Virus record (IMG/VR): IMGVR_UViG_3300014205_000003
Span: 124,070-188,069 of that record
From: a virus
Lineage: Duplodnaviria > Caudoviricetes
Direction: 5' to 3' (one strand)
Length of the DNA stretch: 64,000 bases
Made by a program: the position numbers and the translations under genes. The first letter of the stretch is position 1, and each line of letters opens with the position of its first letter. Below are positions 18,260 through 62,143 of the stretch, piece after piece. A model generated the notes under the pieces. That model saw only the letters and a list, made by a program, of their open reading frames with translations, was not told the origin of the DNA and did no database searches.

Positions 18260-18316
18260 ATGAAAGATGAACGCTGGATTATTGCAGTAAGCAATCCGAA
18301 AAACAAGTGGTGGATA
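18260..18316 (+). pseudogene. Orphan 5' fragment of a WWIV-family gene (MKDERWIIAVSNPKNKWWI), cut by TnpB cassette 1
   Basis: RBS plus ATG; family similarity ends at the cassette right end and the frame stops at 18326-18328. Confidence 0.7.
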
Positions 18317-18336
18317 GTTACCAACTAGATAGCTAG

Positions 18337-19392
18337 TCAGTTTGTCACGGAAGGGGGACTATAGGCTCCCCTCTGTCGGATGTTGATGGCCGCATTGAAG
18401 TCTGCATCCATCTTCATTCCACACGCGGTACAACAGAATGACTCTCCCTTTCGGGACAGTTTGTCTACCGCTCCGCACAAGCTACATGTCTGCGAAGTAA
18501 AGGCAGGATTAATCCTCGTAAGGGTTAGTCCTGCTTCTTCACAAACCATCTGAAGTTTGTCCAAAACTTTTGGATAGCTCCAGCGTTGTAACTTGTTGTT
18601 AAATTGCTTGCTAATCTCGCCTTTAGAACCCTTCTTCACATCCTTGAGATCTTCGACTACAAGTTCTTGAATGTTAGTAAGATCAATCAGCTTTACAGAC
18701 TGATTGATCTTTTGGTCACGTTCCTTCAATGCTCTTTTAAATGCTTTAGATCCTTGTTTCTTCCTAGCGATTTTCTCATAGACATTTTCCATGCCTACGT
18801 CGTAGGTTTTCTGATCGGAAGAAGCAAGGAGTTTCTTGTATCCACAATCAAGGCCTAAGAATGTTCCCTTCGATGTACTGGGAGTATCTTTCTCGAAGAA
18901 TACATCCAAGTACCACTTCCCATTGACTTTACGTAAGCAAGAGGACTTCTTAAGAAGCCAGCCGTGCTGACTGAACTTGAGAAATTGCTTGTGCTTACAT
19001 GAAGGGATCTTAAGATTTATCTTGTTTCCTAGACAAAAGAGTTTAATCCAGAAGTCGAAAGAATTCTGCTTAGTAGAGAAAGTACAGATAAGTTCCGTGA
19101 GATTAAAAGTTTTTTGTTTGAGTACAGGCTTAGATGCTTTCTTTACTTTGTTCTTTCGAGCTCGTAGTTTCTTAAGTACGTCAAAGGCTTGAATGAAAAG
19201 ACATCTTTGAAGGCGAGCGGCGAGCCACGTTGGAATTGGAGGAAGTTGATCGAACTTTGTAGCAGAAGGATCTTTCCAGAAGTGCTCTACGTAGAGATTA
19301 AGTACTCTCAGGGCTTCCACACTGAAAGTATCAAGCTTTTGGAGCTTCCCGGCGTTTGCAAAGTTCAACGACATTTGTACTCTACGAATCAC
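18337..19392 (-). CDS. tnpB: TnpB (Cas12f-like) RNA-guided endonuclease
   Basis: RuvC-I GLDCG, RuvC-II VVEDL, Zn ribbon CSLC/CTAC, RuvC-III DADFNAAINI. Confidence 0.92.
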   Translation of the reverse strand: MIRRVQMSLNFANAGKLQKLDTFSVEALRVLNLYVEHFWKDPSATKFDQLPPIPTWLAARLQRCLFIQAFDVLKKLRARKNKVKKASKPVLKQKTFNLTELICTFSTKQNSFDFWIKLFCLGNKINLKIPSCKHKQFLKFSQHGWLLKKSSCLRKVNGKWYLDVFFEKDTPSTSKGTFLGLDCGYKKLLASSDQKTYDVGMENVYEKIARKKQGSKAFKRALKERDQKINQSVKLIDLTNIQELVVEDLKDVKKGSKGEISKQFNNKLQRWSYPKVLDKLQMVCEEAGLTLTRINPAFTSQTCSLCGAVDKLSRKGESFCCTACGMKMDADFNAAINIRQRGAYSPPSVTN

Positions 19393-19559
19393 TTAGAAGA
19401 TTCTCCTGCAAGAATGCTTTGGATAGATTCTACAGAAATCTTACGTTGCTTAGAAGGTGTCTTATACCCTTTAAGCTTCCCTTCATCAAACCATCTACGT
19501 ATGGAGTCAGGATGTACTCCCATCATCTTAGCTGCTTTAGTTAACGAGATATATTCCAT
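19389..19559 (-). CDS. 56-aa MerR/excisionase-like HTH protein (not in the ORF track)
   Basis: Manual translation MEYISLTKAAKMMGVHPDSIRRWFDEGKLKGYKTPSKQRKISVESIQSILAGESSK; AAAGGA RBS; GTGA overlap with tnpB. Confidence 0.85.
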   Translation of the reverse strand: MEYISLTKAAKMMGVHPDSIRRWFDEGKLKGYKTPSKQRKISVESIQSILAGESSK

Positions 19560-19608
19560 TTTGCTGTTCCTTTCTCATTAATACTAATATAGCATAAGGA
19601 TTTTTATT

Positions 19609-20133
19609 ATGGGAACTAAATGTGCGATGTGCTGTGAGTCTGCTCCTTCGGACAAGTGGTGGGTTCTTCTGTCTTTCAAGCCTAAGAAAATGCCTCGTTA
19701 CCCGTACTTTGATAGCATTCATGGTCCTTATCCAACACGTAAGGAAGCACGAGTAGCTGCAAAGAAGATTAGAGAGAACAGCAGTGAGAGTTCAATCAAA
19801 CTCTCTTACTCTGTTGGAAGAAATCTAGTCATATCCTGTGTCTTCTAACCAATGAAAGTACGAGGATTAATGCAGAATTACTATCTGGAACATCCTGACA
19901 AACTCCCTTGGTGGGTCATCTGCTATAAGAACTATGAAGCCGAGAATAAAGACCTACATGATGGGGACTTTTTCAAGGACGCTCAACTGTATAGACTCCA
20001 TGGTCCTTACATGTCTCGATCGGCAGCGAGATCCTACCTTGAGATTTTGAAAAATAATGACATTTACGATTTTGGTGAGATCGGTCTTCGTTGGAAGATT
20101 GTAAAAGATCTCTGCGTATCCTGTAATCCCTAA
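19609..20133 (+). CDS. Two further WWV...HGPY family paralogs (19609-19848; 19852-20133)
   Basis: KWWVL...HGPYPTRKEAR; PWWVI...HGPYMSRSAAR. Confidence 0.7.
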
Positions 20134-20381
20134 AACCAATGAAAGTACGAGGGCTGAAGAGGTTGTAAAAGATCTCCTCAGCCCTCTCAACCCAACATGG
20201 AAATTTGGCTCACTGCAACAGACAAATTAGTGACTATGTTTAAAGGTGCAAGTCCTCGAAAAATCAACGGAGAGTACAGGAGTTTTAAACCGCCCTGCTT
20301 TGAGATCTCCCTTGAGGATCTGAAAAACAAATCACCTCGTCATGTTCACCTTGACGAACCAGAAGAAGCACCTAAGAAACA

Positions 20382-22646
20382 GTGAAAGACAAAACGATGG
20401 CTCCTAAGAACATCCCAGTCCTGACACCCGCAGAACTCTCCGACAAGATCTTTGAAGGAAAGTACAAACACTCTAAAGATACTAATCGGGACGATATGTT
20501 CCGACGTAATGCTAAAGCCGCAGCCGCTGTACGGCAGCTAGAAGGTACTGCAGAGGAACTGGAAGAATCCTTCTTTCAACTGATGAAAAAGGAACTCTTC
20601 TTTCCAGCAGGTCGTATCCTATCGAACTTAGGTACTGGGCGGCAACAGGTTACAACATTTAACTGCGCAATTGCAAACACCATCCCGGATAGCATGGAAG
20701 GTATCTTTGACGTCTTGAAGATGGGTGCCTTGACACAGAAAGCCGGAGCCGGTATCGGCTATGACTTCTCTACGATTCGGCCAAAGAATCAACTGGTTAA
20801 AGGTGTAGAGAGCAAAGCGTCTGGTCCTATCAGCTTCATGAAAGTCTTTGACAGCGCTTGTCAGAGTATTATGAGTGCTGGCCTGAGACGTGGCGCAAAC
20901 ATCGCCATCCTTCGAATCGATCATCCAGACATCGAAGAGTTTATCACAGCTAAGTCCTCTGCAGGTGTACTGGAGATGTTCAATCTCTCCTGCGGTTTAA
21001 CTGACGAATTTTTAAAAGCTGTGGAAGAGAACAAGACGTTCGATCTGAGGTTCGGAGGAGAAGTCTACAGCACAGTAAAAGCTCGAGACCTCTGGGACAA
21101 ACTGATCAAGAACAATTACGACTATGCAGAACCTGGAGTGCTCTTTCTTGATACCGTAAATCGAAATAATTCACTTTACTATTGTGAGACTATTTCCTGC
21201 TGTAATCCTTGTGGCGAAATAGTTGGACCTCCCTATGGCGTTTGTCTGCTCGGTTCGATGATTCTTCCCTCGTTCGTAAACAAATATAAAACGTTTGACT
21301 GTTCTAGGTTTTACAGTGCTGTAAGACTAGCTACCCATTTCCTCGACAATGTCATTGACATCTCTAAGTTCCCTATTAAGGAACAAGAGAAAGAGGCTAA
21401 GAACAAACGCCGAATGGGTCTCGGTGTTACAGGCTTTGCAGATGCTCTTATCAAGATGGAAATTCCTTACAATTCCCCAGAAGCCGTTAGATTTGCCTCG
21501 GAAGTAGCTAAACAATTGGCCAACGCTGCGTACGGTGCTTCTTCAGATCTTGCTGGGAAGTTTGGTTCGTTTCCTGCATACGTCGCTGAGAAACATAAGG
21601 AGAGCGTTCCTTACAAAACCCTTGCGTTAGAGTTCCCTGATACTGCGAATAACATCGAGCGTAAAGGTCTTCGAAACAGTCACTTGATTAGTATCGCTCC
21701 TACAGGAACTATCTCGCTACTGGCCTCGAACATCTCTAGTGGAATTGAGCCTATCTTCGCTTACGACTACACTCGTAAATTTCGTACAGCTGATGGTGAA
21801 GAACTGTTCAAGGTCTACGACAAGGTGTACTATGAGTGGCTTCAGGCTAATCCTGACAAGAAGCGTCCTGCGTACATGGTGTCGGTGGATGATCTGACTC
21901 CTGATGATCATTTGAATGTTCAAGCGGCGTTTCAGAAGTGGGTGTGCTCGTCAATCTCCAAGACGATCAACTGTCCTGCAGATATCAAGTACGATGAGTT
22001 TTCTAAGATCTATATGAAGGCATGGAAGATGTCGCTCAAGGGGGCAACGTGCTACCACCCCTCTGGTAAGTTGAAGGCTGTCTTGGTAAAAGACACTCCT
22101 GAGAAGCCTGTAGAAACTCTTCCTATTGTGTCTGACGCTGTTCCAGAACGCCCTGATCAGCTTACGGGTGTGACGTACAAGCTGAAAGACGGTCAAGGTG
22201 TGTCGTACTACATAACCATCAACGATCTCGTGGAGGGCTCCCAAACCAGGCCTTTCGAAATCTTCTGCAGTAGCAAGAACCTTGCTGCCGCTGCAACACT
22301 CGCTACGATGACTAGGCTCCTTTCCACCATCTTTAGGCGTGAGAAGGATATCTCATTCATTGTCAATGAGTTGTCGCAGATTTCAGATCCGTCTGGGGGC
22401 TATTGGAGTAATGGTGTGTTCTACTGCAGTCTCCAAGCACACATCGCCGCATGTATCGACGCTCACGTCCAGGCCCTCTCTAAGAAGGGTGTGTTCAAGG
22501 GTAAGCATGTGAAGGACAAGACAGTTACTCCAGAGTCTGAGAAGAAGGGTAAGGTAACAGATCCTTGTCCTCTGTGCGGCAAGCAATTGATCCGTAAGGA
22601 AAATTGTCTGGCTTGCTCGGAGTGTACGTGGTCCCGTTGCCAATAG
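20382..22646 (+). CDS. nrdJ: Class II (adenosylcobalamin-dependent) ribonucleotide reductase with C-terminal TSCPD-like domain and Zn ribbon
   Basis: PAGRIL, TFNC, GIGYDFS, RRGA, AEPG, NPCGE, IAPTGTIS, SSGIEP, ISKTIN, RPFEIF, terminal CPLC...C..C..SRC. Confidence 0.92.
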   Translation: MKDKTMAPKNIPVLTPAELSDKIFEGKYKHSKDTNRDDMFRRNAKAAAAVRQLEGTAEELEESFFQLMKKELFFPAGRILSNLGTGRQQVTTFNCAIANTIPDSMEGIFDVLKMGALTQKAGAGIGYDFSTIRPKNQLVKGVESKASGPISFMKVFDSACQSIMSAGLRRGANIAILRIDHPDIEEFITAKSSAGVLEMFNLSCGLTDEFLKAVEENKTFDLRFGGEVYSTVKARDLWDKLIKNNYDYAEPGVLFLDTVNRNNSLYYCETISCCNPCGEIVGPPYGVCLLGSMILPSFVNKYKTFDCSRFYSAVRLATHFLDNVIDISKFPIKEQEKEAKNKRRMGLGVTGFADALIKMEIPYNSPEAVRFASEVAKQLANAAYGASSDLAGKFGSFPAYVAEKHKESVPYKTLALEFPDTANNIERKGLRNSHLISIAPTGTISLLASNISSGIEPIFAYDYTRKFRTADGEELFKVYDKVYYEWLQANPDKKRPAYMVSVDDLTPDDHLNVQAAFQKWVCSSISKTINCPADIKYDEFSKIYMKAWKMSLKGATCYHPSGKLKAVLVKDTPEKPVETLPIVSDAVPERPDQLTGVTYKLKDGQGVSYYITINDLVEGSQTRPFEIFCSSKNLAAAATLATMTRLLSTIFRREKDISFIVNELSQISDPSGGYWSNGVFYCSLQAHIAACIDAHVQALSKKGVFKGKHVKDKTVTPESEKKGKVTDPCPLCGKQLIRKENCLACSECTWSRCQ

Positions 22647-22903
22647 TTCATGAAGCAGTACAAACACTCTGAGTATTGTTCTTACGTTCTGCATCACCTT
22701 GCCTGTGATTGTGGTGCAGATCGCAGGACATGGAAAGAGTGGTTAGCTAAGGGGCTGCATGTGAAGAAGGGCGAACACGCTGTAGAGACGACTACTACAG
22801 GTCAAGCTCTCTTTACACACAGTCAGGTTACAAGCAATGAATCAACTATTCAGCGAGGTCGCTGGTGGTTGGATGATAGTGTAAATTGTCATTGGTAAAG
22901 TTC

Positions 22904-23222
22904 TTCGTCAGCAGGGATCATATTGGCATCGAAGGGGTTGTGGTGTTTCGCTAAGAGCTTGCTGACGGTCGAGGTGCTCGAAATCTCTCTTAGCGAATTC
23001 CTTTCCAGGTGTGCCCCAGTTCTCCCGCACTCTTAAGAAACGATCCCAGGGAGAACAACTTACTATTTAGTCTTGTCAGAGGGTTGACCATTGGCGCGGA
23101 GGTCACGTGCGTGTTGTAGCAGATGTTCCTCTGACAGTGTGGTACGATTCGCTCTGCTACAGCTCCTAACAGATAGCCAAGACTCCTCCTACCTGTACCG
23201 TAACGTGCTTAGAGGAGTCACC
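22904..23222 (+). ncRNA. Candidate structured RNA of two tandem pseudoknotted modules
   Basis: Crossing 9-11 bp helices repeated with different sequence in two modules of about 150 nt; no convincing ORF. Confidence 0.55.
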
Positions 23223-23253
23223 TTTCTTTCCCTATCAGCAAATAAGGAATCTC

Positions 23254-23793
23254 ATGTCCGTTTCAAGTATGCCTGAGTACAAATCTCTCTTTGATCTATC
23301 TCAGCAGTCAATCTCCTCAAAGTGCACATCTGTGCACTCTCTCCCCACAACCTTCAAGAAAGTTCTCTGGGCTCCGCACAGCTGGAACCTTGACTTAGGT
23401 GGTGGTCAGTACGAAGATGCTTCTATCTATCTGCAGAAACGTTTTGTATCCAACTTTGTATATGATCCGTTTAACAGGTCGGATGAACACAACGAACGCA
23501 TTCGAGCATACATCATAAGTAGTTCGTTTGATACAGTAACATGTTGTAATGTTTTGAACGTTATTAAGGAAGCAAAGATTCGACATACAGTCATAGAACA
23601 GGCGTACAAAGCATTGAAGCTCGGAGGGGTAGCCTACTTTCAGATCTATGAGGGAGACCGCTCTCAGAGGCAAGGAAAGACTTCTAAGGGCTATCAGTTG
23701 AACTGGTGGACGTCTTCTTATGTATCAGAAATCACTAAGGTCTTTCACGGACTATGTAATGAGTACGCTAATACTCTAGTAGTAAGGAAATAA
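23254..23793 (+). CDS. SAM-dependent methyltransferase-like protein
   Basis: NLDLGGG, YDPFN, FDTVTCCNVLNVI, LKLGGVAYFQIYEG. Confidence 0.8.
   Translation: MSVSSMPEYKSLFDLSQQSISSKCTSVHSLPTTFKKVLWAPHSWNLDLGGGQYEDASIYLQKRFVSNFVYDPFNRSDEHNERIRAYIISSSFDTVTCCNVLNVIKEAKIRHTVIEQAYKALKLGGVAYFQIYEGDRSQRQGKTSKGYQLNWWTSSYVSEITKVFHGLCNEYANTLVVRK
23324..23335. repeat. Palindrome copy 4 (inside CDS; 8-bp arms)
   Basis: agtGCACATCTGTGCact. Confidence 0.85.
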
Positions 23794-23825
23794 CCTAGGT
23801 AGGTATTTTATCTTGTTGCTAATCC

Positions 23826-23842
23826 TATGCTATATTAGTATT
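23826..23842 (+). promoter_or_regulatory. Putative extended -10 promoter of the HTH-tnpB operon
   Basis: TATGCTATATTAGTATT, identical on the minus strand upstream of the cassette 1 HTH (about 19580-19596). Confidence 0.6.
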
Positions 23843-23863
23843 CAATAGAAAGGCTAGGTTATA

Positions 23864-24031
23864 ATGGAATACACATCCGTTAGTAAGGCCGCTAAGATGA
23901 TGGGAGTTCATCCAGACTCAATACGCCGGTGGTTCGACGAAGGGAAACTTAAAGGATACTTGACTCCGTCAAATCAACGTAAGATCTCTGTTGAGTCAAT
24001 TAAGGTTCTTACAGGAGAATCTCCTAAGTGA
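23864..24031 (+). CDS. 55-aa MerR/excisionase-like HTH protein (not in the ORF track)
   Basis: MEYTSVSKAAKMMGVHPDSIRRWFDEGKLKGYLTPSNQRKISVESIKVLTGESPK; GTGA overlap with tnpB. Confidence 0.85.
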   Translation: MEYTSVSKAAKMMGVHPDSIRRWFDEGKLKGYLTPSNQRKISVESIKVLTGESPK

Positions 24032-25341
24032 TAAGAACGACTCGTCACAAACTAACTGATAGTAACGCCCTGAAGCAACAAAGGTTACTTTATGTTTTGA
24101 CTGAGAGTAAGAACGTTGCACAAACGTACTTAGACTATTTGTGGACGTATGGTTGTACTTGGCAAACTAAAGATAGTTTGGGCGCTGGTATCCTACACAC
24201 CCTAGACATATCAAGGAATCTTTTTGAACATCCGTCTATGCTGTCAAACGTAGATTTAGAAAACAGCATTCAGGGATTCTCATCGGCCTTATCGGCGCGT
24301 CTGAAGAAGTGTATACTTACTCAAGTCTTAGGGATAGTTGGAGCATCTATAGAGAAGCAGAAGAAGCGTTTGTGGCAGCTTAACAAAAGCATAACAGAAG
24401 GAAAGTCTTGCAAGCAACTGCTCAAGAAAATCGGACAGAATGCTCCTGTTAAACCAGATCTTTCTAACTTCTCATTAGAACTAAACACACTTTGTGTTGA
24501 CCTCCGACGTTTACAAAACTCGCCGTTCGACTATTTTGTGCAACTTAAATGCTTGGGAAAAGGTATTCCTTCCATTCGTCTTCCCATTAAGTTGCACAGA
24601 GCTGATAGGAAGTTTCAATCCTGGAGAATGCTTACCAGTTTTCTGATTTCAGAGAACGAAATACAGATACGATATGAAAAAGAGACACCGCCAAAGCTTG
24701 AACAGGGCTCGGTAGTAGGTGCCGATCAAGGTTTGAAAACAACCATAACCTTCTCTACAGGCTCTATCACTCCAGCAACAGACCCTCACGGTCATTCCCT
24801 AGAAGACGTCACTCATAAATTGTCTAGACGACGCAAAGGCTCCAAGGGCTTTAAAAGAGCTCAAGACCATCGAAAGAACTTAATCAACTTTCAGATCAAA
24901 CAACTGAACTTAACTGGCATCAAACAAATCAATCTAGAGAAGGTCTGGAACATTGGTTACAAGACTCGTAAAAGTCGATACTTGTCGCATTGGTGTAATA
25001 CACTCATCCGAGACAGACTGATCCAAGCTGGAGAAGAACAAGGGGTCCTTGTGAAACTTCAGCCATCAGTCTACAGAAGTCAGAGATGCAGTGCATGTGG
25101 GTTGGTACGAAAAGCCAATCGAAAAGGAAAGGAGTACAAATGCCTTTGTGGCTTTCATCTAGATGCAGATCTGAATGCTAGTCTCAATCATGTAGTTGAA
25201 CTCCCTGAGATTTCGTTTGACTTTCGTAAGTTGAATCTAAACAGAAAGGGTTTCTATTGGAAACCTGAAGGTCTGTTTGATTTAACTGGTAGGGAGTTTG
25301 CAGTCCCCTATTCCTCACAAGAAACTGACTCTAAGTTGTAA
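24028..25341 (+). CDS. tnpB: TnpB (Cas12f-like) RNA-guided endonuclease
   Basis: GADQG, INLEKV, SQRCSACG/CLCG, DADLNASLN. Confidence 0.9.
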   Translation: MIRTTRHKLTDSNALKQQRLLYVLTESKNVAQTYLDYLWTYGCTWQTKDSLGAGILHTLDISRNLFEHPSMLSNVDLENSIQGFSSALSARLKKCILTQVLGIVGASIEKQKKRLWQLNKSITEGKSCKQLLKKIGQNAPVKPDLSNFSLELNTLCVDLRRLQNSPFDYFVQLKCLGKGIPSIRLPIKLHRADRKFQSWRMLTSFLISENEIQIRYEKETPPKLEQGSVVGADQGLKTTITFSTGSITPATDPHGHSLEDVTHKLSRRRKGSKGFKRAQDHRKNLINFQIKQLNLTGIKQINLEKVWNIGYKTRKSRYLSHWCNTLIRDRLIQAGEEQGVLVKLQPSVYRSQRCSACGLVRKANRKGKEYKCLCGFHLDADLNASLNHVVELPEISFDFRKLNLNRKGFYWKPEGLFDLTGREFAVPYSSQETDSKL

Positions 25342-25360
25342 ATGCTTAGATTTCAGTAAC

Positions 25361-25640
25361 TGTCAAAGCAGGAACTGATACTGTCACATGCTGCAACGTA
25401 TTGAATGTGATAAAAGAGCCTGACGTGCGTCGAAAGGTCATAGAACAGGCCTACAAGGCTTTGAAGATGCGTGGGGTAGCGTACTTCCAGATCTACGAGG
25501 GAGACGTCTCCAGCAGGCCCTGCAAGACCACCAAAGGTTTCCAGATGAACTGCAGAGCTAGTAGCTACATTCGCGAGTTCCATGACGTGTTTCATGGCTG
25601 TGTTAATCAATACTCAAATATTCTAGTAATGAGGAAATAA
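25361..25640 (+). pseudogene. Orphan 3' half of the methyltransferase (diverged second copy)
   Basis: DTVTCCNVLNVIKE...VIEQAYKALK..GVAYFQIYEGD...N.LV.RK aligns with the C-terminal half of 23254-23793; no RBS or start. Confidence 0.85.
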
Positions 25641-25642
25641 GT

Positions 25643-26497
25643 ATGACAGTTGCAAAGATTTACCCAAACAACGATTCTGCTTGTCCTGTCTGTAAAGGTC
25701 CGACAGTCCTTACAGAACTTACATGTCGGCACAAGAAAGCGCTCACATTTGTTCTAAGCTGTAAGAATCACAAGTATTGCTACGAGTGTTCTAGCTCGAG
25801 TGTCTCTACACTTGCTAGTGCGCTCTCAGCGACATACAGCGCTATGAATACACCTCCTCGTATGCAGACTGGATTTCCTACGTGCCCTCGCTGTGGTAAA
25901 CAGTTTATTGAGGTTACGCATGACAGCAACAACTACGACTTCAAGTGTCCAGAGTGCAACTTGTGGAAGATGGCTCCTACATATGCAGAACTCGAACTGC
26001 AGTTGGAAGAGATAGACGCCGATTGTAAGGATTACGACAAGTCTATGGGACGGGCTAACAACATACGAGTCCAGAACGTGGTGAAAGAGAACGAGGAGCG
26101 ATTCAACAACATGCCAACGAATTCTACAGAACTCTCCGACGAGGAGAAAGAGAAGCTCCTTAAGGAAATGAAAGAGACAGGTAAGGGAATCAAATTCGAT
26201 CAGGAAAAGCTTAAGTACTCCCTCCTACCTTGGGATGCTGTTAAAGAGGTTGTGAAAGTACTGATGATTGGTGCACGCAAGTACTCAGCTTCAAATTGGG
26301 TAGTGGTTCCCGGAGCCTCTGGAGGCACTGGTCGATACGCTAACGCGGCTATGCGACACCTTGTTTCCTATATGTCAGGAGAGAAGAATGACCCAGAGAC
26401 AAAACTGTCACATTTAGCGCATTGTGCGTGCTGCATTCTTTTTCTGCTTGCTTATGATCTTAGAGGCATTGTATCTAAACCAGAGGAATCCAAGTAA
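25643..26497 (+). CDS. Zinc-ribbon repeats fused to a dATP/dGTP diphosphohydrolase (DUF5664-like) domain
   Basis: GIKFDQEKLKYSLLP...GARKYS..NW...AAMRHL...DPET.LSHLAH; several CxxC pairs at the N-terminus. Confidence 0.8.
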   Translation: MTVAKIYPNNDSACPVCKGPTVLTELTCRHKKALTFVLSCKNHKYCYECSSSSVSTLASALSATYSAMNTPPRMQTGFPTCPRCGKQFIEVTHDSNNYDFKCPECNLWKMAPTYAELELQLEEIDADCKDYDKSMGRANNIRVQNVVKENEERFNNMPTNSTELSDEEKEKLLKEMKETGKGIKFDQEKLKYSLLPWDAVKEVVKVLMIGARKYSASNWVVVPGASGGTGRYANAAMRHLVSYMSGEKNDPETKLSHLAHCACCILFLLAYDLRGIVSKPEESK

Positions 26498-26498
26498 C

Positions 26499-27620: not shown

Positions 27621-27636
27621 CTGAAAGGACTTACAC

Positions 27637-30591: not shown

Positions 30592-30632
30592 CTGTACTTG
30601 ATTCAATAACAGCAACCTAAAGGATAACACAC

Positions 30633-32868
30633 ATGCTACTCAACGCGGCTCGTACTACTGTTTGGAACTGGGACAATGTCACTTCTTCACTCTGCCCTGA
30701 CTGCGGCGAAAAGCTTATGGCTCGTCGCTGTGAAGACAAGATCTGGCACTGGGCTCATTACCCTCTCCCTAAAGGTGCAACCCCTCGTGCATGTCATGCA
30801 GAAGAGACTGCTTGGCGCTTGCAGTGGAAGTTTGCACAGATGTGCAATGATGGCTGGGAGATCGAGAAGCGTGTAGAGCTTGAAGGTAAGATTACTGTTT
30901 TGGATGCTTACAATGCTGAACAGAATCAAGTAACTATCTTCGTTCACAGCACTTCACCTAAGTCCCTCGAACGATTCGAACGTCTCAAGCGCAGTTCCTA
31001 CAACTGCTACTGGATCAACTAAGGTCCCTTTGTCTGGTAACAGGCATTGAAAAGAAAGTGAATTGCTGGGACACCTAAAGTGCACATCTGTGCGCCATGG
31101 CAATCAGCAGCCGACCTCTTAATAGACCCTAGTGGCCTCTAAGAGAAGGTTCAACGACTAGTCCGTAAGGACGTAGGGTCAAGCGGCCCGAAGCACTCTC
31201 TCCTGAGCAATTAGGAGAATGATATAGCCTTTGCCACAGTGAAAATTGTGGGAGTCCTGATTAACCATCAGCAAACCGGCAGTACTTAGCGAGTACTGTT
31301 GAAAACAACTATACGAAGTAGAAATTTCGTTTTGTTTCTCAAGTAGTTTACAAATTCTGATTTGATGTATTATAATAATCCATATGCAGCGTTCACATAA
31401 AATTCGATTAGATCCTACAGTCAAGCAAGAAGTCGCAATGCGACAAGCTGCTGGAACTGCGAGATTTACTTGGAATTACGCGCTGGCTATGTGGAAAAAG
31501 CAATACGACGATTTTAAGCTAGGGCTGGCGACTAAACCAGATGTCTACAGTATCTCCAGACGTTGGACACAAGAAAAACCAGATTGGGCTCGAGAAGTTG
31601 CATGCGGTCTTCAGAACCGTGCAATTATGACTCTCGGAAAAGCTATGATCAGTTTTTGGAACGGGAAGACAAATTTCCCGAAATTCCATAAGAAGTCTGA
31701 CAAGTCTTCTTTCTATGTGGCTAATAGTCATGGTTATATCAAAGATGGCCGGATACACATTACGAATGTTGGAAAAGTAAAACTAGCAGAAGCTCCCCGT
31801 TTTGAGGGGCGAACGCTGTGTTATACTGTTTCTCATTCTGCAGGTAAATGGTTTGTGTCTGTTCAAGTAGAATTGACAGAACCTATTGTACCTAATCCGT
31901 CCTTGTCTGTAGTTGGTGTAGACGTCGGGATTAAGAACATTGCAGTTGCAAGCGATGGCACTTCGTTGCCAAATCCTCATTTTCTTATCAAGCAACAACG
32001 ACAGTTGAAATACTATCAACGTCAATTAGCGCGACAAGTAAAAGGATCAAATCGCCGCAATGCAACGAAAACCCGTATTGCAAAGATCCATCAGAAGATT
32101 GTAAATCAACGTCAGGACTGTGTCCACAAGTTCACTACAGCTCTTGCCAAAAACCACGGCACTGCAGTGATCGAAACACTGGACATCGAGAGTATGAAAA
32201 GTTCAGACAAGGTCTGGATGAATCGTGCTCTCCAAGACACCTGCATGCGCGAGGTCCACAGGCAACTGGAGTACAAGATGAGGGAGCTCGTAAAAGCTCC
32301 TAAGTTCTTCCCCAGCTCCAAGACCTGCTCGTCATGTGGAGATGTCAAAGAGTCCTTGCCACCCTCTATTAGGGTGTACAGATGTCAGTGTGGCTTAGAG
32401 ATCGACCGCGATCTCAACGCTGCACTGAACTTGAGAAACAGGAGTTGGGTAACAACTTCTACATGCGTGGAGACCTCTAAAGGGTCTACGAAGCGCAAAA
32501 CGAAACTCGTTGCCGCTAGGTAACGAACCTCGTATTACAGCTATGACGGAAAGGCCCTTGGCTCTGCTCGTACACGTCGATGCATGTGGGATGATACGTT
32601 GAAGAAGTACATGTTGTATCAACGCATGTTGAAGCCTGCTGCTATGGGTCTCTACAAGGCTACAGGAGGCGCTGTACATCGCTATGAGGGTCTGTACCAC
32701 TGTAAGGACGTGAATCCCTATTATGGCTATGGAAAGGTTCGTGACATTACTCGTTGGACAGCGTTGGAAGGTCCGTTGACGCAGAAGGCTTTGGAGAACT
32801 TCCACAGTGCTCTGAGTCTGATGAACTTCCTTCGCAGGGATGATGAAAAGCCGCAGGTGAGTCCTTGA
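30633..32868 (+). CDS. CoiA-like zinc finger/nuclease protein, split: exon 1 30633-31015, exon 2 32541-32868 (236 aa spliced)
   Basis: CPDCG...HWAH...C..EETAW...W, IE, LD motifs; the join gives in-frame ...NCYW-I-YDGKAL... Confidence 0.7.
31016..31310 (+). ncRNA. Group I intron catalytic core (IA-like, with P7.1/P7.2)
   Basis: P1 GGAU/GUCC with U-G wobble; P AAUUGCUGGG 31061; Q AAUCAGCAG 31102; R GUUCAACGACUA 31149; S GAUAUAGCC 31221; GNRA-capped P2, P7.1, P8 and P9. Confidence 0.88.
31082..31093. repeat. Palindrome copy 5 (inside the intron P5 region)
   Basis: aaagtGCACATCTGTGCgcc. Confidence 0.85.
31347..31376 (+). promoter_or_regulatory. Putative sigma70-type promoter for the intron tnpB
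   Basis: TTTACA-N18-TATAAT just upstream of ATG 31384; no RBS, so probably a near-leaderless mRNA. Confidence 0.5.
31384..32523 (+). CDS. tnpB: TnpB (IS605/IS607 OrfB type)
   Basis: HKIRLDPT..Q...ARFTWN N-terminal HTH; GVDVG, IETL, SSKTCSSCG, DRDLNAALN. Confidence 0.93.
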   Translation: MQRSHKIRLDPTVKQEVAMRQAAGTARFTWNYALAMWKKQYDDFKLGLATKPDVYSISRRWTQEKPDWAREVACGLQNRAIMTLGKAMISFWNGKTNFPKFHKKSDKSSFYVANSHGYIKDGRIHITNVGKVKLAEAPRFEGRTLCYTVSHSAGKWFVSVQVELTEPIVPNPSLSVVGVDVGIKNIAVASDGTSLPNPHFLIKQQRQLKYYQRQLARQVKGSNRRNATKTRIAKIHQKIVNQRQDCVHKFTTALAKNHGTAVIETLDIESMKSSDKVWMNRALQDTCMREVHRQLEYKMRELVKAPKFFPSSKTCSSCGDVKESLPPSIRVYRCQCGLEIDRDLNAALNLRNRSWVTTSTCVETSKGSTKRKTKLVAAR

Positions 32869-49595: not shown

Positions 49596-49605
49596 TAAAG
49601 GAACT

Positions 49606-50112: not shown

Positions 50113-50368
50113 CATCGTTAATGGCTGTTTCGAGCTCTTAGGAGGAGTCCTCTGCTGGTTCAATGTCTACAGACTACAGAAGGACAAGCAGGTTAAGGGG
50201 GTCTGCTGGAGCGTTCAAGCTTTCTTTACATCCTGGTCAGCCTGGAATCTTGCCTTCTATGGCGTGTTGCAAATGCCTCTGTCTCTTATAGGGGCAATCC
50301 TACTAGGCTCTGGAAACGGAGCTTGGTGCGTCTTAGCGTTGTACTACAAAAGGAAACAATTGAAATGA
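50093..50368 (+). CDS. Small 3-TM membrane protein (PQ-loop/SemiSWEET-like)
   Basis: Three hydrophobic helices with a K.VKGV loop. Confidence 0.5.
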   Translation: MHSNWPDIVNGCFELLGGVLCWFNVYRLQKDKQVKGVCWSVQAFFTSWSAWNLAFYGVLQMPLSLIGAILLGSGNGAWCVLALYYKRKQLK

Positions 50369-51394: not shown

Positions 51395-51650
51395 CGTTAC
51401 ATTAAACAGCGTAAGTGTTGGAAAACTCTGCTGACAAGTGGTGTAGCGCCCTAATAGATAAACGTTGATTACAGAGCGCGAGGCGAACATTTCGAGAATC
51501 AACCTCGAATGTGGCGTGTTCGAAGGCAGTAGAGAGATCTGACAAGGTGTAAGACGCTTATGAGAGACAAGCCTACGTATACCTAGGTCGGTCTTGAGGG
51601 CGGTCACGCTACTGGGCGAAGGTCGGGGCCACAGTAGCTTCCTTTTCTCC
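51395..51650 (+). ncRNA. Candidate structured intergenic RNA
   Basis: About 250 nt non-coding with several complementary segments. Confidence 0.3.
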
Positions 51651-51654
51651 AAAC

Positions 51655-51666
51655 GCACATCTGTGC
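51655..51666. repeat. Palindrome copy 7 (intergenic)
   Basis: aaacGCACATCTGTGCactt. Confidence 0.85.
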
Positions 51667-51698
51667 ACTTCTTTCTCTACACTCAACAAGGGATTACT

Positions 51699-54103: not shown

Positions 54104-54145
54104 CTAACTCACATACTACTCAAACACACTCATAAAGGAATCTAA

Positions 54146-55441: not shown

Positions 55442-55842
55442 ATATGTACGACATTGCTTGGAAAGAGTTGACCTACAAGACAGGTAAGTTTTACGGAGTC
55501 TGTAATAACTGTTTCAAGATTGGTTCTGTTGTGTTTGAAGCTTTGGAAGATGAAAATGATGGCTATCGCAGCTCCTTGAAAGGTGTTAATGTTCTGACAG
55601 ATGAAGAAGTAAAGAGTCGAGATTTGATTTTCTTTCATGAGTCTATAGCACAGGTCAAAATTATCACAGACGAAGACAATCTTTATTTGGCAGATACAAC
55701 AACAGGACACACATGGCTTCGAGTAGGGACAGACACTACAGATTCCTGCTATCCGATGTTCCGTTTCGAGTACACGCCTGTAGATTCTAAATGGCACAAA
55801 GATAACATCCTAAACACAGTGTCCTTGCACTTGGAGGATTGA

Positions 55843-57270: not shown

Positions 57271-57277
57271 AGTATTT

Positions 57278-57315
57278 GAAGAGCTCCTTGGGCTATACAG
57301 TTCAGGGAGCTCTTC
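57278..57315 (+). terminator. Stem-loop after the VWA gene
   Basis: gaagagctccttg...cagggagctcttc. Confidence 0.5.
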
Positions 57316-57335
57316 TCAATTTGTAGGAGAAATCT

Positions 57336-59741
57336 GTGAAACATTTCGTAAAGTGTAGAAGAGTCTTTGAGAGTTGGTGTCCTGCTCACCGCTATCTGAT
57401 CAGACTCTTCGGCGTGTACTATGTGCAATCGATCCAGTATCCTACATTACTCTTTCTCAATCAGACAGTAGGTGCTCCTAAGTTCAGACTTTACAATCTG
57501 TGGGGCGACTACATCCTGAGTGACGACACAGGATGGCAACCAATTATAGACAAAGCTGAAGCAGACTTTCCACAAGAGCCTGCATACTGGAGATGGACAG
57601 AACCAGACGATCTGAGATATCCTTTCAACTTTGAAAGTTGCAGACACTGCTTCAGTCAGAGCGTTCAAAATCGAGTCGATGTAATGGTAAGGGTTGACAG
57701 ATTATGAAGCTCGAGAAAGAGTTCTTGGAGAATCCCGCAAACGCTGGAAAGATTCTGCTTCCACAAACTCCGTACACATACACAGACAAAAGTCGGACAC
57801 ATCGTCTTCTGTGCATGTACTTGATCTTGGGAACATATCCCTTGACGCTTTGGCATTATCAGCTTAATGTTGAAGATCGGGATCGATTCTGGTTGAGGCA
57901 GCCAGACGGCTTTGCTTACATAGCGAACGCGTTGTGTCAGACAGTTATCCAAGACGCAGAACAGTTTACTTCAAACATCTTGGGACAAGGAAAAACACAA
58001 CAAGTAGCTTCGTATATGTCTCCACAGCCTATTGAATATTGCAGTAGCTTGTCCTACTATGCGGTTCGTCATTGCTTCTCCCAAGAAGACCAAGATAAAA
58101 TTGCATGTTGCTTAACGCTTTGTCAGTTGTAAAGGAGACAGATGCAACTCGAACGCTTTTACAAATGTCAGACTCCGATAAGAATTAGAAATTATAGAGA
58201 CCGCCCTGAAGAAAACTTAGAACTCTTAGGTGTCTACATAGCGCCTAGGATTCTGTTTCCGGTCTATATCTTCCTAGATGTCAAAGACAATCCTGCGTGC
58301 TTCCAAGAACGCTACAAGATCTTCAACGCGCAAGGCGATTTTCTGAAGACTGAATCATCTCTGTTGGAGGCACTTAGAGTTATAGACAAACACACCAATA
58401 GCACTTACTGGAAAGAAGAACCCAACACATTATACGCACGGTGGAGAGCTTTCTCTTGGAAGAAGTTTCGTCCGCACTTCAGTGAAGAAACTCAACTACT
58501 CGTAGATACAATCTTAGTGTTGCACAATCTGTAAACGCACAGATGTGCACTTTCAGAGAAAGGAGGAAGCTCTTTGATTTTCTTGAAGCCTATTAGACCT
58601 TACAGATCGAAGCTTGGAGATCCTGAACAGCACAAGTCAGGAAATCCATTATACGCGTCCGACTACGACTTCGAAGGCTTCTACATACACAAAGGGTATT
58701 TACCCTTTCAAGTCTGGAAGCTTGTGCCTCACAACGACCCGAATATAAACTTGGATCTCTTCTCATATCTTCTGCTTGATCATACAGGACGCCATCAGGT
58801 AAGTGCTAACTATTTAACAGATGAAGAGTTCTTGCAACTTGCTTATGATAATTGGGGAACTCGAGGTTCTTTTCCATACCCTCAAGCCACTTGGTCAATC
58901 ATCAAAGAGTATTTGTCTCCAGAAGATGTGGAAACCATAAGAGCCCTTCGTGTACTAAACGAACTGTAGAAAGGAGTTGTATGTCCAGAAGCACTAAGCG
59001 ACAAGCTGTTTATGGAAGTTGTCACAGGAATCCTAAAGGTCGCAAGCAGATCAGGATTGCCTGTGAAGATGATGTTCCTCCGCGTAAAGGAGCGATTCCT
59101 CCAGACGCTTGGGAAGACCTTCCGCGAGACAAGCAAGCAGGCCTTATCTGGCACTTGGCAATCAAACTCAAACGTAAAGACAAGCTCTCCTACGACGAGG
59201 TTTATGAGAAGCTGAGGAATAAGTTCAAAGCGTCGGAACTCCAATACGTCATCAACAGGCTCAAACGATGTCACTGGTAGCCTCTAAGTGCGTCTGTCGT
59301 AGAATGAGAAAATATGGCATGGAGGAGATTCTGTATGTAGAGTCTAATCCTAACTTACCTGACTTGTACTTGTGGAAGCCTATGAGGGTTGACAAGCACT
59401 TCTTTCAGGATGCCTCTTTTGTTAGTCTCAACATGTTGATTGCTGTAGGTTTGTTTGGACCGTGTCCTGTTGTGTTCTATACCGTTCCAGTAGACTCAGA
59501 TCAAGCTGGAACGATATCTCTAGGACTAAACAGACACACAAACTACTACGAAGCTTTTGGTCTTACCTCTGGCAATCACATACATCAGCTTCAAGCACTC
59601 GAAAGCTTCTACTCCCGGTTTATAAACCCTCCAAGTAGAAATCTTGATTTGGACAAAGCACGTTGGTTAGCCATCAAATGTCTCTTCCCACCACAAGCAA
59701 GAGAAATGGTCGAAGCTCGCAAGAGAATAGACTTACTATGA
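57336..59741 (+). CDS. Tandem 120-155-aa proteins with a shared C-terminal helix (57336, 57704, 58142, 58574, 59268) plus 58981-59280
   Basis: Ends such as HCFSQEDQDKIACCLTLCQL and PHFSEETQLLVDTILVLHNL. Confidence 0.65.
58537..58548. repeat. Palindrome copy 8 (intergenic)
   Basis: aaacGCACAGATGTGCacttt. Confidence 0.85.
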
Positions 59742-59754
59742 AAGGAATCACACA

Positions 59755-60273
59755 ATGAGACTCATTACAGCAATCATTCTGTTCGTAACTGCTAGTGTCT
59801 TCGGACAAACTCCTGAACAACGTCTGAATCGATTGGAACAACAAACACGAGACGCCAACTTTAAATCCTCTATCAATGCGCTGAATGCTAGGTATGACGC
59901 TGAGAGTAATTCTAGACAATCGGAATTCAGTCAACGTCAAGCCTCTACAGACGCTAATACGATCTATCGTCTCATGCATCAACCACGTGCTGTAGAAGCT
60001 CCTGTACTCTCTTATCACGAGCAATTTCTTGCAGATACCAAGTACGTAATGGCCGCTAAAGATTATTACGACTACCCATCGGTTACAAATCCTGATGGAG
60101 AAGTACTCAAGAGAAAGAGCATCGCTCACTACTTTGTCTATCTTGGCAAAATTACCATGCAATCAAGACTCGGACCTAAGTATGGGGATTGGTATGAACA
60201 ACGACAATTTGACTTCAAGCAAGAAGTACTTCCACTCCTGCAAGACGCCTTCCCCGGTCGATACGGTAAGTAG
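59755..60273 (+). CDS. Secreted protein with signal peptide
   Basis: MRLITAIILFVTASVFG-Q. Confidence 0.65.
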   Translation: MRLITAIILFVTASVFGQTPEQRLNRLEQQTRDANFKSSINALNARYDAESNSRQSEFSQRQASTDANTIYRLMHQPRAVEAPVLSYHEQFLADTKYVMAAKDYYDYPSVTNPDGEVLKRKSIAHYFVYLGKITMQSRLGPKYGDWYEQRQFDFKQEVLPLLQDAFPGRYGK

Positions 60274-60332
60274 TTTCTCTTCGTCCTCTTGAGGTTATGT
60301 TAGATATTACTTCAACAAGGAGAATATCTGAC

Positions 60333-60596
60333 ATGAACGCTGCTAAACTTCTTCAAGACAGTGCAATTAATTCCGCTCAGTACAAAACCATTGTCAAAGA
60401 CAACAGCGCTGCGGGTTTGCAGTGGGTCGGAATTGCTGCCCCAGGTTCTGCTACTTCCGCTGCTGTCTGGCAGATCAAACGCATCACTACGACTGTCGAC
60501 GGAGCTGTTGAGACTACTCTGATCGAGTGGGCAGACAGCAACTTAAAGTTCGACAATATCTTCGACAACGCTATGACAACCATTGTATATGGGTAA
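60333..60596 (+). CDS. Hypothetical phage protein
   Basis: AAGGAG RBS; WVGIAAPGSATSAAVWQIKRI. Confidence 0.6.
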   Translation: MNAAKLLQDSAINSAQYKTIVKDNSAAGLQWVGIAAPGSATSAAVWQIKRITTTVDGAVETTLIEWADSNLKFDNIFDNAMTTIVYG

Positions 60597-60599
60597 CCA

Positions 60600-60622
60600 A
60601 TGACTATAGTCAGAGTCAAATG
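60600..60622 (+). pseudogene. Orphan 5' fragment (MTIVRVK) of the zinc-finger gene now at 61979
   Basis: GAGTCAAATG at 60613-60622 is repeated at 61998-62007; both encode VRVK. Confidence 0.65.
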
Positions 60623-60644
60623 GTTGTAGCTAAGCGGGGCTTCT

Positions 60645-61721
60645 CTACTTTTGAGCTTGGGCGACCATAGACTGCCCAAAGGTTCCGAGGTGTTTAGCGA
60701 GAATGTTGCAAGCTCCGACGTAGTCGGCATCAGCAGAATGACCGCAGCTGATACAAGCAAACTTCTCTCCCTGTCTATTGTCTTTCGACACCGTGCCACA
60801 TGCAGGACAGCATCGCGAGGTATTGGCTGGATCTACGAACACAACGCGAACACCGTTCCGTTGTGCTTTGTACTCAATCCAGTTGATCGCCTGACGTACT
60901 GTCCACGGTGCCATAGCTTTACGAAATGCTTTTCCTCTGTTTTGTTGTTTTCCTTGTTTGATTCCTCTAAGGTCTTCTAGTACGATTGTCTGTAAGGACT
61001 TCCAAGGCAGTTGATTTACGGATTCTCGAATGTACTGATCACGATGCTTACGAGCTTGCAGGTTGCTCTTTGAGCCTTTCTTGGAAGTCTTTACAGCATC
61101 GCAAAGAGGCGAAACTATATTTCCTAGGAATTTTCCAGAAGATAGTGAGAGAAGTTTGTTCTTCCCTAGATCAATTCCCAGTACATCTCCTGTGCTCTTC
61201 GTCTCTTTATCTACCACGTCAACAAAGAGTGTAATTCTGTCAGAATACAAAGATGCACTAGATGAGAGGACAGCCCCAGGTTCTGCTAGAAGTTTGTTTA
61301 GGTGGGCGTGCTTTTTACACGGAAGTGCAAGCCTCTTCCCTTTCTTCAGATATGACACTTTGATCAAAAGATCAAATTCTTTTAGTGATGTTGTTTGTAC
61401 AACAGTACAGGTTAGTTCGGTAAGATCTACAGGACCATTGTATTTAGATGTTTTGTGTGATTTAGTTTTCTTGCTCAATTTCCTAGGAGTATTGTGAATA
61501 CTGAGCGCTTTCTTAAATGCAGAGCCTCTAAGATTAGCAGACAGCCTTGTCTCCGTAGGCGAAACGAGGCTTTGTGTTTTGGCGTCAAAGGAACCTCTTC
61601 CTTTAGGCAAACGTACAAGGTAGAGGTTCACAATACGACAATATTCAGTACGCAGATTCGCAACAGCTTTCTTCTTAGAGGCTGTTAAGAACTTCAATGA
61701 AATGTTTACAGAGAGTTGCAC
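60645..61721 (-). CDS. tnpB: TnpB (Cas12f-like) RNA-guided endonuclease
   Basis: GIDLG, VLEDL, TSRCCPACG/CISCG, DADYVGACNI. Confidence 0.92.
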   Translation of the reverse strand: MQLSVNISLKFLTASKKKAVANLRTEYCRIVNLYLVRLPKGRGSFDAKTQSLVSPTETRLSANLRGSAFKKALSIHNTPRKLSKKTKSHKTSKYNGPVDLTELTCTVVQTTSLKEFDLLIKVSYLKKGKRLALPCKKHAHLNKLLAEPGAVLSSSASLYSDRITLFVDVVDKETKSTGDVLGIDLGKNKLLSLSSGKFLGNIVSPLCDAVKTSKKGSKSNLQARKHRDQYIRESVNQLPWKSLQTIVLEDLRGIKQGKQQNRGKAFRKAMAPWTVRQAINWIEYKAQRNGVRVVFVDPANTSRCCPACGTVSKDNRQGEKFACISCGHSADADYVGACNILAKHLGTFGQSMVAQAQK

Positions 61722-61909
61722 GGGTTCTCTACTTTTGTCACGAACGCGGAGCTTTTTCCTGCAAGAGCTGTAATCGAATCCACAGAAACCTTACGCTGTT
61801 TAGAAGGAGTCCTGTAAGATTCTACAATCCCTTTATCAATCCAACGACGTAAAGTATCTCTGTGAACCCCTAGCATCTTAGCGGCTTTTCCTATTGACAT
61901 GTAGAGCAT
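61706..61909 (-). CDS. 67-aa MerR/excisionase-like HTH protein
   Basis: MLYMSIGKAAKMLGVHRDTLRRWIDKG..SYRTPSKQRKVS; AAAGGA RBS. Confidence 0.85.
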   Translation of the reverse strand: MLYMSIGKAAKMLGVHRDTLRRWIDKGIVESYRTPSKQRKVSVDSITALAGKSSAFVTKVENPCNSL

Positions 61910-61978
61910 GTTGCATATCCTTTCGTTATGATAAATACTACAGCACATGGTTTCAACAAATAAGGAGTCCGTTTACGT

Positions 61979-62143
61979 ATGACAAAGCAAACAGTACGAG
62001 TCAAATGCACTAAGTGCGATGGCGTAGGCTTCGTTAAGGTTGACAGCAAGCTTCGTGTTTGTCCTGTATGTCTTGGCAACAAAACCATTCGCTACGATAC
62101 AGAAGCCATCAAGAAGCCTCAACAGCTTCGCATCGACAACTAG
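61979..62143 (+). CDS. 54-aa zinc-finger protein (CxxCxGxG...CxxCxG; not in the ORF track)
   Basis: MTKQTVRVKCTKCDGVGFVKVDSKLRVCPVCLGNKTIRYD...; TAAGGAG RBS. Confidence 0.75.
   Translation: MTKQTVRVKCTKCDGVGFVKVDSKLRVCPVCLGNKTIRYDTEAIKKPQQLRIDN

Follow-up and report, generated by a model that had tools for sequence, protein, structure and literature searches.

The genome of IMGVR_UViG_3300014205_000003, a 188,069-bp IMG/VR virus record with direct terminal repeats that is rated complete, contains a cassette in which a gene for the RNA-guided nuclease TnpB stands between an intact methyltransferase gene and the displaced 3' part of a diverged allele of that gene. We analysed bases 124070-188069 of the record (the window, 64,000 nt, whose own numbering is used below unless genome positions are indicated). 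Three cassettes of the window share one layout, namely a promoter, a helix-turn-helix (HTH) open reading frame (ORF) of 55-67 aa, a tnpB gene whose D/E/D triad is intact and, last, a right end (RE). The displaced gene segment is firmly supported at cassette 2 (case 2), probable at cassette 1 (case 1) and weak at cassette 3 (case 3), and one independent repeat was found in an unrelated viral contig; homing of the cassettes is plausible. As an origin of this layout we tentatively favour, as a distinct if not yet probable possibility, a home-and-rescue process, by which a foreign gene segment would have come together with a TnpB programmed against the un-invaded allele.

The positions and layout of the three cassettes agree with an earlier note on this DNA, which had overlooked a fourth tnpB in the window (31384-32523) and four outside it; the complete 188-kb genome thus has eight. 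Cassettes are labelled c1-c8 genome-wide (cassette 1 is c5, cassette 2 is c6), and L numbers denote surveyed loci.

Fragments at the right ends and predicted guides

At cassette 2, the intact methyltransferase gene is followed after 29 nt by the cassette, whose RE abuts an open frame of ~92 codons (Table 1). The reading of this frame as an orphan 3' half of the methyltransferase gene, first made in the earlier note, is statistically firm: it aligns with residues 88-179 of the intact product at 64% amino acid identity over 92 aa (E 2e-41) and remains family-like up to the junction (VKAGTD, compared with ..GGAD in the consensus of 39 homologues). Over 88 codons the two copies share 67% of all nucleotides and 43% of third positions, with a proportion of synonymous differences (pS) of 0.80, i.e., saturated, and a nonsynonymous divergence (dN) of 0.25. 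Saturation at synonymous sites together with this dN means that both copies have long diverged as working genes. A duplication made by the insertion itself, and decaying later, was considered and is excluded by the same values. The copies are, as read from their sequences, two old functional alleles and not a local duplication, the truncation being comparatively recent.

The earlier note had placed the RE at a hairpin followed by AAC. The hairpin is present, and the true end lies 3 nt beyond AAC, as pseudoknot covariation and family comparison place it: AACTAT in cassette 1 (plus strand 18314-18319), AACTGT in cassette 2 (25358-25363) and AACCAT in cassette 3 (plus strand 60620-60625). In ~35 family members, carriers of the transposase TnpA included, the region after tnpB consists of the hairpin and then AACTAT; near-identical elements differ right after the terminal motif, where conservation stops sharply. 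The five terminal bases of the RE pair with the loop of a hairpin that is conserved within the 3' end of tnpB (~35 sequences), and terminus and loop covary in four forms: ACTAT/ATAGT (26 sequences), ACTGT/ACAGT (four), ACTCT/AGAGT (c1) and ACCAT/ATGGT (cassette 3 and its relative L101). Cassette 2 has ACTGT/GCAGT, with one G-U pair. This covariation supports a functional omegaRNA, structured by the loop-terminus pseudoknot, that overlaps the 3' end of tnpB and ends at the RE, and puts the REs 3 nt past AAC; no Rfam family matched the omegaRNA. Two other boundaries were rejected. An RE of cassette 3 at GACTAT would place the case 3 orphan inside the element and conflicts with the ACCAT/ATGGT covariation common to L101; a terminal TAT derived purely from the target is at odds with its covariation with the internal loop, so it is element-encoded, though possibly also target-matching.

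The flanks thus begin at 18313 (reading downward), 25364 and 60619 (downward). With the RE boundaries fixed 3 nt further out, all three predicted guides belong to the orphan fragments, which hold the initial 20 nt of the respective flanks completely, and the candidate orphan of case 3, read on the minus strand, is exactly the predicted 20-nt guide of cassette 3. This upholds the suggestion that the displaced segment would serve as guide template. The companion suggestion, that the resident copy is mismatched to the guide, holds for case 2 (11 of the first 13 nt differ), for case 3 (identity stops after 7 nt) and for guide positions 12-16 of case 1, but not for the first 11 nt of case 1, which match.

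Table 1. Coordinates of cassette parts, orphan fragments and their counterparts (window numbering)
Feature	Position	Strand	Remarks
Case 1 orphan	18260..18313	+	Start codon and 17 codons (MKDERWIIAVSNPKNKWW) of a small WW-family gene; cut by cassette RE
Predicted 20-nt guide, cassette 1	18294..18313	-	Flank directly 3' of the omegaRNA terminus; antisense to orphan; predicted from TnpB biology
RE tail, cassette 1	18314..18336	-	Hairpin CTAG..CTAG, then GGTAACTAT; terminal ACTAT pairs with loop ATAGT, 18358-18362
tnpB, cassette 1	18337..19392	-	351 aa; D182/E247/D331; CxxC..CxxC zinc finger
HTH ORF, cassette 1	19389..19559	-	56 aa; IS607 transposase model positions 2-48 of 187; catalytic domain absent
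Left-end block, cassette 1	19560..19600	-	Conserved; extended -10 promoter (TCCTTATGCTATATTAG...)
Intact WW-family gene	19609..19848	+	79 aa; first 18-19 codons (19609-19665) are the candidate cargo counterpart
Intact S-adenosylmethionine (SAM)-methyltransferase-like gene	23254..23793	+	179 aa; counterpart of orphan is codons 93-179 (23530-23793)
Left-end/promoter block, cassette 2	23823..23863	+	TCCTATGCTATATTAG...; begins 29 nt past methyltransferase stop
HTH ORF, cassette 2	23864..24031	+	55 aa; 52/55 identical to c4 HTH (dN/dS 0.05)
tnpB, cassette 2	24028..25341	+	437 aa; D233/E304/D381
RE tail, cassette 2	25342..25363	+	Ends CAGTAACTGT; terminal ACTGT pairs with loop GCAGT, 25300-25304 (one G-U)
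Predicted guide, cassette 2	25364..25383	+	First 20 nt of case 2 orphan
Case 2 orphan	25364..25640	+	3' part (~92 codons and stop) of a diverged methyltransferase allele; open frame; abuts RE
Case 3 candidate orphan	60600..60619	+	ATG and 6 codons (MTIVRV-); 3 nt past stop of gene 60297-60596; weak
RE tail, cassette 3	60620..60644	-	Ends CTACAACCAT; terminal ACCAT pairs with loop ATGGT, 60664-60668
tnpB, cassette 3	60645..61721	-	358 aa; D184/E249/D333
HTH ORF, cassette 3	61706..61909	-	~67 aa from homologous start; MerR / HTH_17 / excisionase-type; IS607 model positions 2-48
Intact zinc-ribbon gene	61979..62143	+	54 aa; DnaJ CXXCXGXG-like; first 9 codons (MTKQTVRVK) are the candidate counterpart

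Case 1 is a probable displaced gene segment, as judged from its register and setting. The ATG of its orphan, at 18260, lies 1 nt past the stop of the upstream gene, and its 18 codons end KWW at the junction; the gene at 19609 likewise opens with 18 codons ending KWW, in the same register. The resemblance noticed earlier (...NKWWI and MGTK...DKWWV) is real, with a permutation p of 6e-4 in comparison with random segments of the genome and a p of 0.002 for an exact match of 11 nt, whereas the status of the fragment as a displaced segment is weakened by its location in a tandem array (17798-20133). The array is composed of small genes (75-93 aa) with an N-terminal WW[IV] motif and a central HGP[YF]..R..A motif, for which no Pfam or PHROG family was found.

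With at least four small WW...HGP paralogues and the orphan as a fifth member, the array would suit an explanation by tandem paralogues and adjacent deletion: the cassette would have entered one array member, and the part on its left-end side would later have been lost. End-mediated rearrangements are plausible for recombinase-type elements. As an account of the layout this is nevertheless very unlikely. The methyltransferase locus offers no second 5' part or other paralogue and leaves only the 29 nt between the intact stop and the left end, both of its copies were long functional by their saturated synonymous divergence and low dN, and in the independent repeat, L028, a 1138-aa gene would have to have been present in tandem and one copy lost except for its last 34 codons.

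Case 3 is a weak candidate for a displaced segment. A fragment is present at the site for which it was claimed, but comprises only 7 codons; its protein-level test is not significant (p 0.27), and the RE itself contributes 3 nt to the 10-nt DNA match (p 0.004). The three independent cases of the earlier note are therefore reduced to a firm case 2, with case 1 weakened by the paralogue array and case 3 by its shortness. Cases 1 and 3 might also be chance resemblances or unrelated short ORFs, leaving the methyltransferase duplication as the only real one and no common mechanism. The values for case 3 would agree with this, as would a cross-locus null (described below) in which case 1 has a p of 0.07 and case 3 is outside the top 20. 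We regard it as improbable, since the case 1 match is in register from the start codon (residues 15-23 in both) at the permutation p given above, and the ATG of both short orphans lies 1-3 nt past an upstream stop, as in real genes here.

Related loci and the search for empty alleles

From 79 related viral loci that we retrieved, the flank at the RE was in each case compared with the left-end side, and 70 non-redundant cassettes served for a cross-locus null. Clearly above this null were c6 and L028 alone, with scores of 103 and 138 against null maxima of 44-47. In L028, the unrelated contig, a gene of 1138 aa is followed by 25 nt, a tnpB without HTH, an RE ending ...GCAACTAT, 4 nt, and the last 34 codons of the gene again. 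The repeated segment stops at the same place, with a third-position identity of 46%, pS ~1 and a proportion of nonsynonymous differences (pN) of 0.08. The arrangement in L028 repeats the geometry of case 2 exactly. The survey for flanking protein-level duplications that had been recommended thus returned c6 and one independent repeat, so that the layout is occasional. Two other loci, c1 and L056, were rejected as further examples: their top null ranks came from alignments through stop codons in implausible frames.

A different arrangement was seen in L053 (IMGVR_UViG_3300023242_000003). In the region 2560-8211, its SNF2 helicase gene, which has intein-like LAGLIDADG/Hint signals, ends 46 nt from the TnpB RE, and a 72-residue copy of the C-terminal part of the helicase (63% identity, one stop) is located 1.1 kb beyond the left end of the cassette. 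A Cys-rich ORF beside this cassette could not be confirmed as an HNH endonuclease.

Neither an empty allele nor a close relative turned up in any of the collections examined. Blastn against a phage collection gave no DNA-level match to the genome, and the closest methyltransferase relatives among 5.8 billion proteins are 45-51% identical, with nothing above 51%; the lineage is therefore essentially unsampled, and all comparative tests are limited accordingly. The search for relatives of the L028 gene returned only L028 itself, a degenerate pattern for the orphan peptide had no match in metagenome contigs, and the helicase orthologue is missing from sister records of the L053 phage. When L069 was compared with a genome of 72% identity, the site proved to lie in a hypervariable paralogue region with no clean empty-site junction. 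Pattern scans with four close copies found nothing; those with the c1/c8 pair found two distant loci.

A number of observations weigh against a home-and-rescue origin. The clear layout is confined to 2 of the 70 non-redundant cassettes, and no empty allele was found in the phage collection, among relatives of the methyltransferase or the L028 gene, or in the metagenome contigs. At L053 and L054 the displaced 3' fragment of the helicase is on the left-end side, past two extra ORFs, and c2, c3 and c4 sit at gene boundaries without cargo or an orphan/cargo pair. Case 1 lies within a tandem paralogue array, so its fragment could be a neighbouring paralogue, and its resident keeps the 11-nt seed match to the predicted guide; case 3 rests on its 7 codons. 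The last 3-5 nt of the REs resemble native sequence, so that discrimination between self and non-self is putative. A transposon-adjacent motif (TAM) was not derivable: the left-end flanks of c4, c5 and c6 show TCCT(T)AT, and those of other subgroups gave no consistent motif. Finally, in what is a weak test, the G+C content at third codon positions (GC3) of the case 2 orphan is 0.59 (94th percentile of the genome) and that of the cargo a typical 0.42, the opposite of the simple expectation that the orphan is native. From the loci compared, the gene-end duplication layout is occasional and not a rule, and the guide side is not invariable.

Two of the cassettes without a pair, c2 (minus strand) and c3 (plus strand), flank a single 720-aa gene with their left ends facing it (genome 50380-55106; L002 and L003). 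The 610-aa gene upstream takes its final 8 codons and its stop from the RE of c2, read on the other strand, and a 291-aa ORF downstream takes its ATG from the RE of c3.

The main rival explanation is a static recombination scar without later homing, which we consider rather unlikely. The RE of a cassette beside a gene D in one phage would have recombined into the homologous gene R of a co-infecting, diverged phage, joined by a serine TnpA (in trans or ancestral) or illegitimately at a short match; alternatively, the element would have inserted into R, followed by ordinary recombination with D. The hybrid would be kept since its gene is whole, the orphan would be a by-product, and TnpB would persist by, e.g., maintenance or competitor killing. 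The family has active-looking TnpA partners, and IS607 recombines across 2 bp of identity and is minimally specific for its target (PMC6188088). In cases 1-3 and L028, the final 3-5 nt of the RE coincide with the native reading (WW-I, a V codon, K-C, and AGTAT versus ACTAT), which fits serine-recombinase exchange over a short identity, or microhomology joining between diverged co-infecting genomes. Both the rarity of the layout and the atypical GC3 of the orphan speak for a scar as well. However, the same rare outcome would be needed at least twice in one genome and again in L028, the open, consensus-like orphans would be unexplained unless all events were recent, and so would the strong purifying selection on cassettes that lack any transposase.

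Ancestry and selection of the cassettes

By their sequence relationships the cassettes are IS607-family derivatives, and not autonomous members, with the serine-recombinase TnpA reduced to its N-terminal HTH. The HTHs of the window match HTH_17, MerR and positions 2-48 of the 187-position NCBIfam IS607 transposase model (NF033518). Relatives of their tnpB genes (~50% identity) are found directly behind full, resolvase-type TnpA genes of 185-210 aa that overlap the tnpB start (P0141, P0187 and ~14 IMG/VR loci; seen in a Pirellulaceae assembly and in large viral contigs). Since the DNA-binding domain of IS607 transposases is N-terminal (PMC6188088) and the match is to model positions 2-48, the HTH reported earlier can be identified as a TnpA minus its catalytic domain. 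The ORFs end at 55-67 aa without a serine-recombinase catalytic domain, and the stop of each overlaps the start of its tnpB. This identity as a transposase remnant makes a transposase-made RE junction likely.

The earlier observation that no TnpA, HUH or serine recombinase, is present extends to the entire 188-kb genome, in which neither the serine-recombinase domain (PF00239) nor the Y1 transposase domain (PF01797) had any match. The cassettes do not belong to IS200/IS605, defined by a Y1 HUH TnpA and subterminal hairpin ends; their relatives pair with serine recombinases. The GG termini of IS607 are absent too, and the subgroup ends AACTAT, AACTGT, AACCAT or AACTCT, TnpA-carrying members included. 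The retained HTH is probably now a regulator of its cassette.

All three reported tnpB products match PF07282 and the NCBIfam guided_TnpB model (NF040570), and each has the split RuvC-like domain with its D/E/D triad and, before RuvC-III, a zinc finger with four cysteines. They are thus catalytically intact, as had been claimed, and the triad is intact in all eight TnpB copies of the genome. The ratio of nonsynonymous to synonymous divergence (dN/dS) is 0.05-0.16 for TnpB pairs and for the HTH pairs c4-c5 and c4-c6, with dS from 0.6 to >1.8 between copies; HTH pairs involving c2 have 0.27-0.41, and the four group-A TnpBs ~0.1 at dS of at least 1. Such ratios indicate that TnpB and HTH are under purifying selection and that the HTH remnant is not decaying.

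The promoter and HTH modules of c6 (23823-24031) and c4 (genome 102365-102565, L005) are near-identical in protein despite many synonymous changes: 3 of the 55 HTH residues differ, at dS 0.60 and dN/dS 0.05. The TnpBs of the two cassettes are only 30% identical, hence regulatory module and nuclease have been swapped between cassette types. An extended -10 element (TGCTATATT) is conserved in the upstream part of cassettes 1 and 2. Conserved as well is the left-end block TCCTTATGC (window 19584-19600; genome near 102560), which on the other strand reads AAGGA, 7-9 nt ahead of the start codons of outward-facing genes at c5 (gene 19609) and c4. The cassette left end may therefore be a source of ribosome-binding sites for these genes, and the block could also be a TAM-bearing flank. 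Ahead of related viral TnpBs (L030, L053, L056, L058 and L085), the small ORFs vary from a 70-aa HTH-only TnpA remnant (L030) to 49-54-aa ribbon-helix-helix-like proteins, which suggests that small DNA-binding partners repeatedly replace the transposase; some viral relatives have no such ORF.

The fourth tnpB of the window (31384-32523) is of the classical IS200/605 type and alone scores best on that NCBIfam model. Ahead of it, 31006-31251 resembles a group I intron RNA (RF00028, E 1.6e-9; 44.4 bits, below the gathering score of 50), and just upstream an ORF at 30633-31022 has a CoiA N-terminal domain; the region 30633-32540 looks like an IStron without TnpA. The G+C content is 45.7%, and the encoded phage functions include a class II-like ribonucleotide reductase, an ATP-dependent DNA ligase and an RNA ligase, among others. 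Directly after the orphan methyltransferase fragment, gene 25643-26497 encodes a dATP/dGTP diphosphohydrolase N-terminal domain (PF18909, E 1e-27); the DNA ligase and RNA ligase genes come after it, which may hint at a modified-base DNA pathway.

Proposed home-and-rescue and known systems

The sequences show how the cassettes are built, to which family they belong, where their REs and predicted guides lie, how far the alleles have diverged and that purifying selection acts; nuclease activity, a TAM, cutting of the naive allele and spread are inferred. A cassette would bring along a foreign version, long diverged, of the gene segment next to it. This would have taken place at the methyltransferase locus, probably also at the WW gene and possibly at the zinc-ribbon gene. 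The foreign copy would complete the resident gene, and the resident's own segment would be pushed past the RE. The omegaRNA guide would be transcribed from the first ~16-20 nt beyond the RE; being read from the displaced segment, it would programme TnpB against the un-invaded allele and leave the hybrid resident mismatched. During mixed infection TnpB would cleave the naive allele, and repair from the invaded genome, with the 5' part of the gene and the orphan as homology arms, would copy in cargo and cassette. As each homing would make a new orphan from the recipient's segment, the freshly truncated look of the orphans would be explained. Such a cycle would be an RNA-guided form of mitochondrial mobile endonuclease ORFs and of intronless homing in phages. 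The first RE junction probably goes back to a serine transposase, in trans or ancestral, or to illegitimate joining at a short match. The RecA-like and RuvC-like recombination genes on which spread had been proposed to rely are weakly backed: the RecA-like match (E 8e-4) is below the curated cut-off, and a Pfam RuvC resolvase was not found. In more general terms, it strikes us as possible, though on the doubtful side, that phages harbour natural RNA-guided home-and-rescue drives, with the displaced segment as both guide template and homology arm and the HTH as regulator of the cassette.

The earlier note knew of no description of this architecture. A comparable one is on record in fungal mitochondria, where mobile endonuclease ORFs (mORFs) have brought a foreign C-terminal segment into atp6, atp9, cox2 and nad3 of Glomus sp., yielding a gene core, foreign C-terminus, endonuclease and displaced native C-terminus (PMC3630166); the atp6 gene of Allomyces macrogynus, built likewise, is cited there as a gene-hybrid case. 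In mORF hybrids the native C-terminus persists as a fragment downstream, most differences between the copies are synonymous, expression is from the inserted copy, and the endonuclease drives mobility (PMC3630166). Case 2 resembles them in part order and in mostly synonymous differences between copies; the order of gene core, foreign replacement, nuclease gene and displaced native segment is also found in L028, with cases 1 and 3 as candidates. The nucleases of mORFs are protein-guided LAGLIDADG or GIY-YIG enzymes, often fused in frame, whereas here the nuclease is the RNA-guided TnpB, the guide would be templated by the displaced fragment itself, and the host is a phage. Moreover, the two candidate cases here replace the 5' end, because the cassette is antisense to the gene.

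With IS607 insertion sequences the cassettes share TnpB relatives that pair with full TnpA, an HTH corresponding to the N-terminal domain of TnpA, the lack of inverted repeats and target duplication, and a guide from the right flank. Unlike in IS607, no copy has the catalytic recombinase domain, nor is it encoded elsewhere in the genome, the termini are AAC(T/C)(A/G/C)T and not GG, and three cassettes are flanked by gene-segment duplicates (cases 1 and 3 being candidates).

TnpB-stimulated homing is established for IS605/IS607 elements and plasmids (Meers et al., 10.1101/2023.03.14.532601; PMC11870625), and the idea of non-restorative homing into co-infecting phages has been put forward in a general way (PMC13565253). 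Restorative homing and plasmid drive by TnpB also involve an RNA-guided cut of the element-free site and copying of the element by homologous recombination; the known examples, none of them demonstrated in a phage, restore an excised copy or spread a bare insertion sequence and do not carry a diverged replacement segment. Free-standing homing endonucleases of T-even phages, as summarised in PMC13565253, cause intronless homing and marker exclusion. Like the nuclease in our proposal, theirs is encoded between conserved phage genes and cuts the rival genome in mixed infection, with co-conversion of flanking markers and protection of the self allele by sequence differences; recognition is by protein, and normally no displaced gene fragment is left. 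Synthetic home-and-rescue and cleave-and-rescue drives, engineered with Cas9 in insects, combine a guide that targets the wild-type allele with a rescue copy that has been recoded. The arrangement here would, unlike these, be natural and in a virus. Full-text literature searches on TnpB in connection with phage, homing, allele or truncated transposase gave no description of this arrangement. The new feature is the nuclease, an RNA-guided TnpB that stems from a decayed IS607 element and is carried by a phage, with the displaced fragment exactly where the guide is read.

For this TnpB clade, the pairing of the terminal pentamer with the hairpin loop inside tnpB provides a simple rule to place the RE and read the guide. 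If home-and-rescue is true, it would explain why tnpB persists and multiplies in phage genomes without a transposase (here in eight copies, all under purifying selection), and would widen the role of TnpB from restoring an excised copy to invading rival alleles without loss of host-gene function. It would also be a natural counterpart of engineered gene drives that carry a rescue copy, and would join RNA-guided nucleases to mitochondrial mORFs and phage intronless homing.

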